DNA from: Escherichia coli
Lineage (GTDB): Bacteria; Pseudomonadota; Gammaproteobacteria; Enterobacterales; Enterobacteriaceae
Length of the DNA stretch: 64,000 nucleotides
Assembly (NCBI RefSeq): GCF_044324875.1
Contig: NZ_CP172185.1
Reading direction: 5' to 3' (one strand)
The stretch's first letter is position 1. Every line of letters starts with the position of its first letter. The notes beneath the pieces were generated by a model. It worked only from the letters and a program-made list of their open reading frames with translations. It searched no databases and was not told where the DNA came from. The translations under genes were made by a program, and so were the position numbers. Shown piece by piece: positions 10,680 through 51,055 of this stretch.

Positions 10680-10997
10680 CAATCATTCTCCTTTGGCGAA
10701 ACCGAATAAAACGGTATTCAAGTATCAGAAAACCTTAGTTCAGGATCGCACTAGCTGCATGATCGAAATCTCATTCTGCGAACGGTCAGGCATTTTAGAA
10801 AAGGGAATTAAAGGGATAAATAACGTCGAAATAGAGTGAACAAATAACGTCTGTTTGTTAGCCAGCCAGCGGCGTTGGGTTCGCGATTAGCGAAGAAAAA
10901 TCATCACAAATTGGTGAAAAATATAACAGGTAGTTAAAAACATCCGTGCAGAGTAAATAGCCGGATGACATCAGAACGATGCCATCCTAACTGTGGT

Positions 10998-47866: not shown

Positions 47867-48573
47867 TCGAACTCGTGATTGTATCGCGTCTCCTTGAATA
47901 TCCGGATGCTGCTTTATGGCAGCATCAACAAGAGATGTTTGAGGCAATTGCTGCGTCGAAAAATCTGTCGAAAGAAGATGCCCATGCGCTGGGCATTTTC
48001 CTGCGCGATTTAACGACGATGGATCCGCTCGATGCCCAGGCGCAGTACAGCGAACTGTTCGATCGTGGTCGCGCCACGTCGCTGTTGCTGTTTGAACACG
48101 TTCACGGGGAATCCCGCGATCGCGGTCAGGCGATGGTGGACCTGCTGGCACAGTACGAGCAGCACGGTTTGCAGTTAAACAGCCGCGAATTGCCCGACCA
48201 TTTGCCGCTGTATCTGGAGTATCTGGCGCAGCTGCCGCAAAGCGAAGCCGTGGAAGGTTTGAAAGATATCGCGCCGATTCTGGCATTGCTCTGCGCGCGT
48301 CTGCAACAGCGTGAAAGCCGTTATGCCGTGCTGTTTGATCTGCTGCTGAAACTGGCGAATACCGCAATCGACAGCGACAAAGTGGCGGAAAAAATTGCCG
48401 ACGAAGCGCGCGACGATACGCCGCAGGCGCTGGATGCTGTCTGGGAAGAAGAGCAGGTTAAATTCTTTGCTGACAAAGGCTGCGGTGATTCAGCCATCAC
48501 TGCTCATCAGCGTCGCTTTGCCGGTGCCGTCGCGCCGCAATATCTGAATATCACCACCGGAGGACAGCACTAA
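47863..48573 (+). CDS. narJ: Nitrate reductase assembly chaperone
   Basis: 236-aa ORF overlapping narH by 4 bp. Confidence 0.95.
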
Positions 48574-49250
48574 TGCAATTCCTGAATATGTTCTTCTTTG
48601 ATATCTACCCGTACATAGCCGGGGCGGTCTTCCTGATTGGTAGCTGGCTGCGTTATGACTACGGGCAGTACACCTGGCGCGCGGCGTCCAGCCAGATGCT
48701 GGATCGCAAAGGGATGAACCTGGCGTCGAACCTGTTCCATATCGGTATTCTGGGGATTTTTGTCGGTCACTTCTTCGGTATGCTGACGCCGCACTGGATG
48801 TATGAAGCCTGGCTGCCGATTGAAGTGAAACAGAAAATGGCGATGTTTGCTGGTGGTGCCAGCGGCGTGCTGTGTCTGATTGGCGGCGTGCTGTTGCTGA
48901 AGCGTCGTCTGTTCAGCCCACGCGTGCGTGCAACCACTACCGGAGCGGATATCCTGATCCTGTCGCTGCTCGTTATCCAGTGCGCGCTGGGCCTGTTGAC
49001 CATTCCGTTCTCCGCCCAACATATGGACGGTAGCGAGATGATGAAACTGGTTGGCTGGGCGCAGTCGGTAGTGACCTTCCACGGTGGCGCTTCTCAACAC
49101 CTTGATGGTGTGGCGTTTATCTTCCGTCTGCACCTGGTGCTGGGGATGACGTTATTCTTGCTGTTCCCGTTCTCACGTCTGGTGCACATCTGGAGCGTAC
49201 CGGTGGAGTATCTGACACGTAAGTATCAGCTGGTGCGCGCTCGTCACTAA
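48573..49250 (+). CDS. narI: Respiratory nitrate reductase A, gamma subunit (cytochrome b)
   Basis: 225-aa five-helix membrane ORF overlapping narJ by 1 bp. Confidence 0.95.
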
Positions 49251-49271
49251 GCGAATTTAAGTTTGCATAGA

Positions 49272-49294
49272 CCCCGCTTCGGCGGGGTTTTTTT
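49272..49294 (+). terminator. Intrinsic terminator of the narGHJI operon
   Basis: CCCCGC-TTCG-GCGGGG followed by TTTTTTT, 22 nt after the narI stop. Confidence 0.85.
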
Positions 49295-49430
49295 ATGGGC
49301 ACGGTACGGGGTGAGTTGTCGGATGCGCTTCGCTTATCCGAACAACAGGGAAGGATATTGTAGGTCCGGTAAACGCGGTGCCATTGGGCAGAATTAGCTC
49401 GGAGTAACAGGTTTTGAGTATTTACAGGAA

Positions 49431-49964
49431 GTGATGGTGGTTGGGGAAGGATTATTCAGCGCTGCGCGCTTCACCCTTCGGGTCGTTGCCTGCGGCAACG
49501 CTCTCTCGCTGGCGCTCGAGTCGAACCTTGGTCGAAGCTTCTCATCCTTCCCCGCTTGGGCAGAATATTTAATTACGGATTCGTTTGAGAGTTCAGGGAC
49601 TTTTGAAAGTGATGGTGGTGGGGGAAGGATTACTCAGCGCTGCGCGCTTCGCCCTTCGGGTCGTTGCCTGCGGCAACGCTCTCTCGCTGGCGCTCGAGTC
49701 GAGCCTTGGTCGAAGCTTCTCATCCTTCCCCGCTTGGGCAGAATATTTAATTACGGATTCGTTTGAGAGTTCAGGGACTTTTGAAAGTGATGGTGGTGGG
49801 GGAAGGATTACTCAGCGCTGCGCGCTTCGCCCTTCGGGTCGTTGCCTGCGGCAACGCTCTCTCGCTGGCGCTCGAGTCGAGCCTTGGTCGAAGCTTCTCA
49901 TCCTTCCCCGCTTGGGCAGAATATTTAATTACGGATTCGTTTGAGAGTTCAGGGACTTTTGAAA
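49431..49964 (-). repeat. Three tandem 178-bp repeats downstream of tRNA-Tyr (rtT-type units)
   Basis: Units begin at 49431, 49609 and 49787 (exact 178-bp period); units 2 and 3 are identical, unit 1 has a few substitutions. Each begins with a copy of the tRNA-Tyr 3' end (TGGTGGTGGGGGAAGGATT). Confidence 0.85.
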
Positions 49965-49968
49965 GTGA

Positions 49969-50053
<85 letters not shown>

Positions 50054-50212: not shown

Positions 50213-51055
50213 TTAAAGAATAATCGTCCGATTACCGTAAACAAAGACGCGCTGCGCCAGTACTTTGTAGAGTGCGCGACTTAAGACGTTTTTCTCGACG
50301 TCACGACCTGCGCGCATCATATCTTCAGCTGTGTAGGTATGATCGACATGAATAACGTCCTGCATGATGATTGGACCTTCGTCCAGATTGTCATTCACAT
50401 AGTGAGCGGTTGCGCCAATAATCTTCACGCCACGTTCATAGGCCTGGTGATAAGGACGTGCGCCGATAAACGCTGGCAGGAATGAATGGTGAATATTGAT
50501 GATCTTATTCGGGAAGCGTGCCACAAATTCTGGCGTTAATACCCGCATATACTTCGCCAGCACCACGTAGTCAGGCTGATAAGCATCAATGGCATCCGCC
50601 ATCTTTTGATCGTGCTCGTTGCGGCTTAACCCTTCATGGCTTACCAGCTCAAACGGAATATCAAAACGCTCAACCAGAGAACGTAAAGTATCGTGGTTAC
50701 CAATAACTGCCGCGATTTCGACATCCAGGCCGCCGTAATTGGCTTTCATCAACAAATCGCCGAGGCAATGCGCCTCTTTAGTGACCAGAATCACTATCCG
50801 GCGACGACCGGCAGGATTCAGCTCACGTACGGAGCCTTCTGGCAATGCGCTGTCGAGATCCGCCAGCAGGGTGGAATCATTAAAAATTCCTTCCAGTTCC
50901 GTGCGCATAAAAAAGCGCCCGGTACGGTGATCAACAAATTCATTGTTCTGTACGATATTTAACTCGTGCTTGTAGCAAATATTGGTAATACGTGCGATCA
51001 GACCTTTTTGGTCCGGACAAATAGTACGCAGAACTTTACGTTGGAGTGAATGCAT
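50213..51055 (-). CDS. purU: Formyltetrahydrofolate deformylase
   Basis: 280-aa ORF with an N-terminal ACT domain and formyltransferase core (MHSLQRKVLRTICPDQKGLIARIT…). Confidence 0.95.
   Translation of the reverse strand: MHSLQRKVLRTICPDQKGLIARITNICYKHELNIVQNNEFVDHRTGRFFMRTELEGIFNDSTLLADLDSALPEGSVRELNPAGRRRIVILVTKEAHCLGDLLMKANYGGLDVEIAAVIGNHDTLRSLVERFDIPFELVSHEGLSRNEHDQKMADAIDAYQPDYVVLAKYMRVLTPEFVARFPNKIINIHHSFLPAFIGARPYHQAYERGVKIIGATAHYVNDNLDEGPIIMQDVIHVDHTYTAEDMMRAGRDVEKNVLSRALYKVLAQRVFVYGNRTIIL

Follow-up and report, generated by a model that had tools for sequence, protein, structure and literature searches.

The region analyzed here lies in a 64,000-nucleotide stretch of Escherichia coli DNA (the window), in the gap between narGHJI and a convergent tRNA operon. 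Its upstream border is narI, the last gene of narGHJI, an open reading frame at 48573–49250 on the plus strand that was assigned from the list of reading frames and from synteny with K-12. The narJ–narI stretch is 99.2% identical to the annotated narJ–narI of the nearest complete E. coli genomes, and the window is therefore E. coli-like. A terminator scan places a hairpin resembling an intrinsic terminator, AGACCCCGCTTCGGCGGGGTTT followed by a T run, at 49269–49297 on the plus strand, and we take this to be the narGHJI terminator. MFE and centroid folds both contain the hairpin, which is kept in K-12, CFSAN018748 and P. vendiensis. On the other side of the gap is a tRNA-Tyr gene (GTA anticodon; ARAGORN, and Rfam tRNA with 53.4 bits) at 49969–50053 on the minus strand, the head of a convergent operon of the tyrT type. 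It is followed on its 3' side by three RtT units on the minus strand, at 49435–49566, 49613–49744 and 49791–49922, which match Rfam RF00391 with scores of 134.2, 129.9 and 129.9 bits. These are 178-nt direct repeats that converge with narGHJI. The copy number and spacing of tRNA-Tyr at this locus differ among strains. The window has one gene and then the three RtT units, tyrT and tyrV are spaced by 209 nt in K-12, and in CFSAN018748 a gap of 34 nt separates two tRNA-Tyr genes.

Between the narI stop codon (49250) and the first RtT unit (49435), 3' of the narI terminator, are two short inverted units that are extragenic. The original prediction had taken them for a diverged pair of REP elements lying between the terminator and the tRNA-Tyr repeats, and so for an extragenic palindrome at an operon boundary. 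That placement is correct, and both strings on which it was based are found once each on the plus strand, GTCGGATGCGCTTCGCTTATCCGAACAACAGG at 49318 and TGTAGGTCCGGTAAACGCGGTGCC at 49359. Unit 1 occupies 49317–49346 on the minus strand, and is defined by a covariance model, a match to the Z2 consensus, a hairpin and its K-12 ortholog. A linker of 13 nt, AGGGAAGGATATT, read directly from the sequence, occupies 49347–49359. Unit 2, GTAGGTCCGGTAAACGCGGTGCCATTGGGCA, is at 49360–49390 on the plus strand, and was delimited by its model score, its fold and its orthologs in K-12 and P. vendiensis. The two units are therefore arranged head to head on opposite strands, 13 nt apart. An 11-nt block, TTGGGCAGAAT, assigned to repeat family D4, lies at 49384–49394 on the plus strand. 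This block is shared with the RtT units, and 7 nt of it coincide with the 3' arm of unit 2, so that the right boundary of unit 2 is ambiguous.

Read on the minus strand unit 1 is GTTGTTCGGATAAGCGAAGCGCATCCGACA, which divides into GTTG-TTCGGAT-AA-GCG-AAG-CGC-ATCCGAC-A. It has the length of a Z2 unit and a Z2-like center, together with CGGAT/ATCCG arms of the Y type. Y units with GTAGGTCGGAT...ATCCGACA arms occur among bona fide K-12 units. A GTAG tetranucleotide is conserved at the head of REP units (PMC8266576). The head of unit 1 in the window is GTTG (CAAC at 49343–49346 on the plus strand), and it is GTAG in K-12, CFSAN018748 and P. vendiensis. The hairpin is kept with the loss of one basal pair of the stem. 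Its predicted stability is −11.0 kcal/mol as RNA and −7.4 kcal/mol as DNA, with an AA/TT irregularity, and the corresponding RNA values are −12.6 kcal/mol for unit 1 of K-12 and about −13 kcal/mol for the Z2 consensus. A unit 1 hairpin is present in every allele that we sampled.

Literal searches of the window with Y-type and Z-type consensus sequences found no canonical REP, and a model was therefore required. Other loci of K-12 supplied 250 kb of sequence, in which 38 units were found, 26 of them unique, with profiles seeded by annotated REPs and the crystallized Y unit of PMC3479197. The model, termed R1, is a covariance model with two REP stems made from the alignment of the 26 unique K-12 units, none of which comes from the REP108 locus discussed below. 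It was run over the whole 64-kb window with filters off, and its E-values are roughly calibrated. Unit 1 is the top-ranked match in the window, with 25.6 bits and E = 1.4e-4. The second-ranked match, at 50570–50601 on the plus strand, reaches 13.2 bits with E = 0.29, and no match other than unit 1 falls below that E-value in the 64 kb. Unit 2 scores 8.8 bits with E = 4.4 and ranks seventh, which is not significant by itself. Scanning with REP models, as the original prediction had proposed, thus identifies unit 1 and leaves unit 2 in the noise. When R1 was applied to 49 kb of K-12 the two units of REP108 ranked first and second, with 40.0 bits (E = 1.5e-8) and 20.9 bits (E = 0.002). Annotated K-12 REPs outside the training set score 12–32 bits, so unit 1 of the window is within the range of annotated elements and unit 2 is below it.

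Simpler tests point to the same unit. In ungapped comparison with the Z2 consensus GCCTGATGCGCTACGCTTATCAGGCCTACG (PMC11208160) unit 1 agrees at 22 of 30 positions, more than any other place in the window (the next has 19), and the pattern GATGCG-N(2-16)-CTTATC occurs once in the window where 0.16 occurrences are expected. A mixed Y/Z profile that uses sequence only also ranks unit 1 first in the window, but with E = 0.45. It follows that the strong R1 score of unit 1 hinges on the structure term and on a model whose calibration is rough, and clean separation of unit 1 is achieved only by the structure-aware model. With a Z-only profile made from three sequences, unit 1 of K-12 has E = 0.015 and unit 2 of K-12 has E = 2.3. 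The match at 50570–50601 lies inside a reading frame syntenic with K-12 purU (50213–51055, minus strand), and its K-12 equivalent scores 10 bits; we treat it as noise. The syntenic span of K-12 contains only two listed elements, REP107 and REP108. The ortholog of REP107, which is in the dhaM/treA intergenic region, is CGGATGACATCAGAACGATGCCATCCTAAC at 10962–10992 of the window, and no R1 match with E of 10 or less covers it. R1 misses the most degenerate of the annotated REPs.

Unit 2 is a decayed Y-like unit with an intact GTAG head at 49360–49363. P. vendiensis has a perfect 7-bp stem at this position, relative to which the window carries three C-to-T changes in the stem, two of them also differences from K-12. 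The REP-type stem is absent from the predicted fold of the window unit, whereas the units of K-12 (−10.6 kcal/mol) and P. vendiensis (−13.2 kcal/mol) form it. Unit 2 of the window cannot be called as a REP by sequence alone. Its R1 score is not significant alone, and it is identified as a REP by its position, its orientation and its orthology. Unit 1 is closer to the short Z2 class than to the Y consensus quoted in the original prediction.

In the K-12 BIMEs that we sampled, head-to-head units are separated by linkers of 9–17 or 33–35 nt, and the pairing is always Y with Z. The doublet, with its Y+Z pairing, head-to-head layout and 13-nt linker, fits this pattern. BIME-1 and BIME-2 are used here as reportedly defined by Bachellier and colleagues, BIME-2 being a mosaic in which Y and Z2 REPs alternate and the linkers are short. 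As in elements of the BIME-2 type such as REP120 and REP104 of E. coli, a short Z2-like unit stands head to head with a Y-like unit, and the linker belongs to the short (9–17 nt) class. The differences from that type are that there is a single Y/Z pair here without tandem amplification, that unit 1 carries Y-type CGGAT/ATCCG arms on a body of Z2 length with CGAAGCG at its center where Z2 has CGTAGCG, and that unit 2 is without the canonical GGCG-TTTA-CGCC inner stem.

The position of the doublet leads directly to a known element of K-12. A supplementary table in bioRxiv 10.64898/2026.03.23.713779 lists REP108, described as "Tandem" and assigned to narI|ychS, at 1286595–1286666 of NC_000913.3. 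Window positions 49319–49390 align base for base with these 72 nt, and the feature is thus a REP element that had been annotated before. The K-12 interval reads TCGGATGCGCTTCGCTTATCCGACCTAC-AGGGGAGGATATT-GTAGGCCCGGTAAACGTGGTGCCATCGGGCA. We aligned the intergenic region with those of K-12 MG1655 and CFSAN018748 over narI, the terminator, both units and the start of RtT, a comparison with other strains that the original prediction had suggested, and the element is gap-free in both. Its reading of a diverged REP pair is borne out by K-12, where the ortholog is listed as REP108 and both units score significantly with R1. We conclude that 49317–49390 is very probably the ortholog of K-12 REP108, a two-unit BIME with Z2-like and Y-like units head to head across a 13-nt linker, in the gap between the narGHJI terminator and the convergent tyrT–RtT operon. 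The feature is thus already known, as the annotated REP108 in a degraded form. It is an intergenic relic left blank by the automatic RefSeq annotation. The RefSeq copy of NC_000913.3 used for K-12 likewise contains no repeat_region features, and the REP108 label comes from the supplementary table.

The window allele has the same position (narI to ychS/rttR), extent of 72 nt, unit orientations and linker length as REP108 of K-12, from which it differs by seven substitutions. In unit 1 CCTAC of K-12 has become CAAC, by which both the GTAG head and a CT dinucleotide are gone. The linker has a single G-to-A change. In unit 2 GCC is replaced by GTC, CGT by CGC (in the loop), ATC by ATT and GGGCAA by GGGCAG. 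From K-12 to the window the R1 score falls from 40.0 to 25.6 bits for unit 1 and from 20.9 to 8.8 bits for unit 2, and the window allele is the more decayed of the two. E. coli N3 has the same CCGAACAAC/GGGAAGG changes, i.e. CAAC and the altered linker, which indicates that the window allele is real.

The element extends beyond Escherichia. We scanned the core of unit 1 against a collection containing one genome per species, and obtained eight loci in Pseudocitrobacter, Luteimonas and two metagenome-assembled genomes. No Escherichia locus was returned from this collection; one possibility is that the genome representing E. coli lacks REP108. The P. vendiensis locus starts with narI and the terminator, continues with unit 1, the linker and unit 2, and closes with RtT and two tRNA-Tyr genes. 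Compared with K-12, unit 1 is identical at 28 of 28 positions and unit 2 at 28 of 31, and the flank towards RtT is well conserved, while the linker has diverged. The P. vendiensis locus (L014, 3517–3767, on the minus strand relative to the locus) also contains a tandem array of about 2.5–3 copies of a block comprising the terminator-like hairpin, a spacer and unit 1, with a period of 102 and 92% matches, so that the repeating unit includes the terminator hairpin. The array is followed by the conserved unit 2, one RtT and the two tRNA-Tyr genes. The core GGATGCGCTTCGCTTATCCGA(C/G)CTAC is found at several unrelated loci in Pseudocitrobacter and Luteimonas, and an inverted partner such as GTAGGCCGGATAAGCGAAGCGCATCCGGCA accompanies it at three of the eight loci. 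These copies keep the CTAC/GTAG head that the window copy has lost. Apart from the narI-linked locus of P. vendiensis, which is the ortholog, they are paralogous REP copies.

Two other origins of the region have been weighed against a REP pair. It might be a degenerate fourth unit of the RtT or tRNA-Tyr repeat. The block TTGGGCAGAAT does recur at the end of each RtT unit, and by eye the 40 nt that follow it look like the spacer between units. Yet Rfam finds no RtT or tRNA match in 49300–49434 at E up to 1, and local alignment of 49317–49390 to RtT and tRNA-Tyr on both strands gives scores of 18–19, against 16.2 ± 2.0 with a maximum of 23 for shuffled sequences. The 11-nt block is the only segment recovered when the doublet is aligned locally to the RtT units, and unit 1 fits the REP models instead. 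With a null result from Rfam and an alignment score inside the shuffled distribution we reject this reading as highly improbable. Still less credible is that the likeness to REPs arose by chance in a GC-rich intergenic region. The noise-level score of unit 2 and the poor E-value of unit 1 with the sequence-only profile would allow it, but unit 1 stands 12 bits above the second-ranked match, and its Z2 score is reached in one of 200 Markov-1 randomized windows. Moreover, for a second match scoring 8.8 bits or more to lie head to head with unit 1, on the correct strand and 13 nt away, the chance expectation is about 0.003, a rough figure derived from the seven matches that reach this score in the 64-kb window. 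Nor would chance account for a K-12 ortholog that is better preserved, unambiguous and independently annotated. Pure chance is excluded by the combination of model score, paired arrangement and orthology with REP108.

The doublet as an ortholog of REP108 can be followed through natural variation in E. coli. The REP108 region is present in 4749 of 5426 complete E. coli genomes, and the remaining 677 (∼12%) give no match. Five sampled E. coli records align only as far as the narI stop codon. S65EC, the only genome inspected among those without the region, has a seven-gene island in place of the terminator, REP108 and all the RtT repeats. The island runs from the narI stop codon to a single tRNA-Tyr gene (NZ_CP036245.1, 1434027–1441051; L017/L018), replacing window positions 49251 to about 49968. 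Its products are a KAS III-like protein, an epimerase, an MBL-fold hydrolase, an F390 synthetase-like protein, a PAP2 phosphatase, a sterol desaturase and a fatty acid desaturase. An empty insertion site was sought in E. coli without the region, and in S65EC the island obscures the original limits of the insertion.

A different event is seen in E. coli ET201 (NZ_CP100994.1), where an element of the IS621 family (IS110) has entered unit 1 after TTATCCGACCT, at the CT of its CCTAC. The point of insertion corresponds to 49344/49345 of the window (L023, 1–356; L024, 1340–1670). IS621 inserts at ATCAGGCCTAC within REPs (PMC11208160). The insertion in ET201 at CT provides independent natural evidence that a unit 1 of the K-12 type acts as a target in the manner of a REP. 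In the window allele the CT dinucleotide is missing at this point. At its right junction the ET201 element reads ACAGTATCT followed by ACAGGGG. Its left non-coding end has GCCGTATCCGACCTTGGG, which repeats 9 nt of the left flank of the target; the loop of the reference IS621 is reported to encode ATCGGGCCTAC. From the sequence of this end, GCCGTATCCGACCTTGGG may be a target guide of a bridge RNA that has been re-programmed naturally. The same site has thus undergone insertion of an IS621-family element, replacement by a gene island, or tandem amplification together with the terminator in different genomes. In the window it offers a small example of REP decay, with one unit having lost its GTAG head and the other its stem, in which the degraded pair could still be recognized by eye from the sequence. 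REP108 is otherwise an ordinary element of little import, and what is known of REPs and BIMEs is unchanged by this locus.

The comparisons above establish the REP identity of the doublet, its orthology and age, its state of decay and its position at a convergent boundary, and are consistent with the following history. The doublet would have arrived as a REP/BIME, the type of element handled as single-stranded DNA by the REP-associated tyrosine transposase TnpA(REP), which requires a GTAG head and an imperfect hairpin. It would have been at the narI site since before the split between Escherichia and Pseudocitrobacter. Mutations in GTAG are not tolerated by the TnpA(REP) of E. coli (PMC8266576), and its GTTG head suggests that unit 1 does not serve as a substrate. 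Unit 1 is probably immobile on this analysis, and in the source genome the whole doublet is probably an immobile relic, unit 1 having GTTG with a hairpin of about −11 kcal/mol and unit 2 having GTAG without a stem. On the plus strand the doublet lies 3' of the intrinsic terminator of narI, so transcription is expected to be rare. Any residual activity would be likelier on the minus strand. There the doublet would fall at the far end of the zone in which the tyrT–RtT transcript undergoes Rho-dependent termination, and the hairpin of unit 1 could stall 3' exonucleases or RNA polymerase.

A role of this kind might explain why the doublet has been kept. As a working transcription boundary on the minus strand, either the distal part of a Rho-dependent terminator or a protective hairpin at the 3' end of tyrT–RtT, it would limit antisense transcription into narI; such a proposal concerns function and is compatible with an origin as a REP. 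In K-12, rather than in the source genome, a rut site at 1286609–1286798 on the minus strand shares 57 bp with REP108 and belongs to a bicyclomycin-sensitive transcript (bioRxiv 10.64898/2026.03.23.713779). E. coli and P. vendiensis resemble each other closely in both units and in the flank on the RtT side but differ in the linker, and the retention of the unit 1 hairpin in all the sampled alleles is in keeping with such a role. Conservation of the units could however also stem from the general homogeneity of REP sequences. Moreover unit 2 has uncompensated changes in E. coli alleles, such as GTAGGTCAGG in ET201, and its REP-type stem is lost in the window. ET201 tolerates an IS621-family insertion within unit 1, and around 12% of complete E. 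coli genomes do without the region, S65EC being without terminator, REP108 and RtT altogether. We therefore regard a boundary function as rather unlikely, and it is more doubtful still that the doublet was kept across the genera as a working Rho-dependent terminator or 3'-end-forming signal of the tyrT–RtT operon. Were that the case, the window allele, which has lost GTAG and kept the hairpin, would show that selection maintains the hairpin and not recognition by the transposase. The unit 1 hairpin could conceivably have a modest part in 3'-end formation.

A further likeness is found within the gap, between the narI terminator and the RtT repeats. The stem of the terminator, CCCCGCTTCGGCGGGGTTTTT (49272–49292), is 76% identical (16 of 21 positions) to the CCCCGCTTGGGCAGAATATTT block that ends each RtT unit, copies of which are at 49550–49570, 49728–49748 and 49906–49926. 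This may be due to chance, or may be a trace of a common origin.
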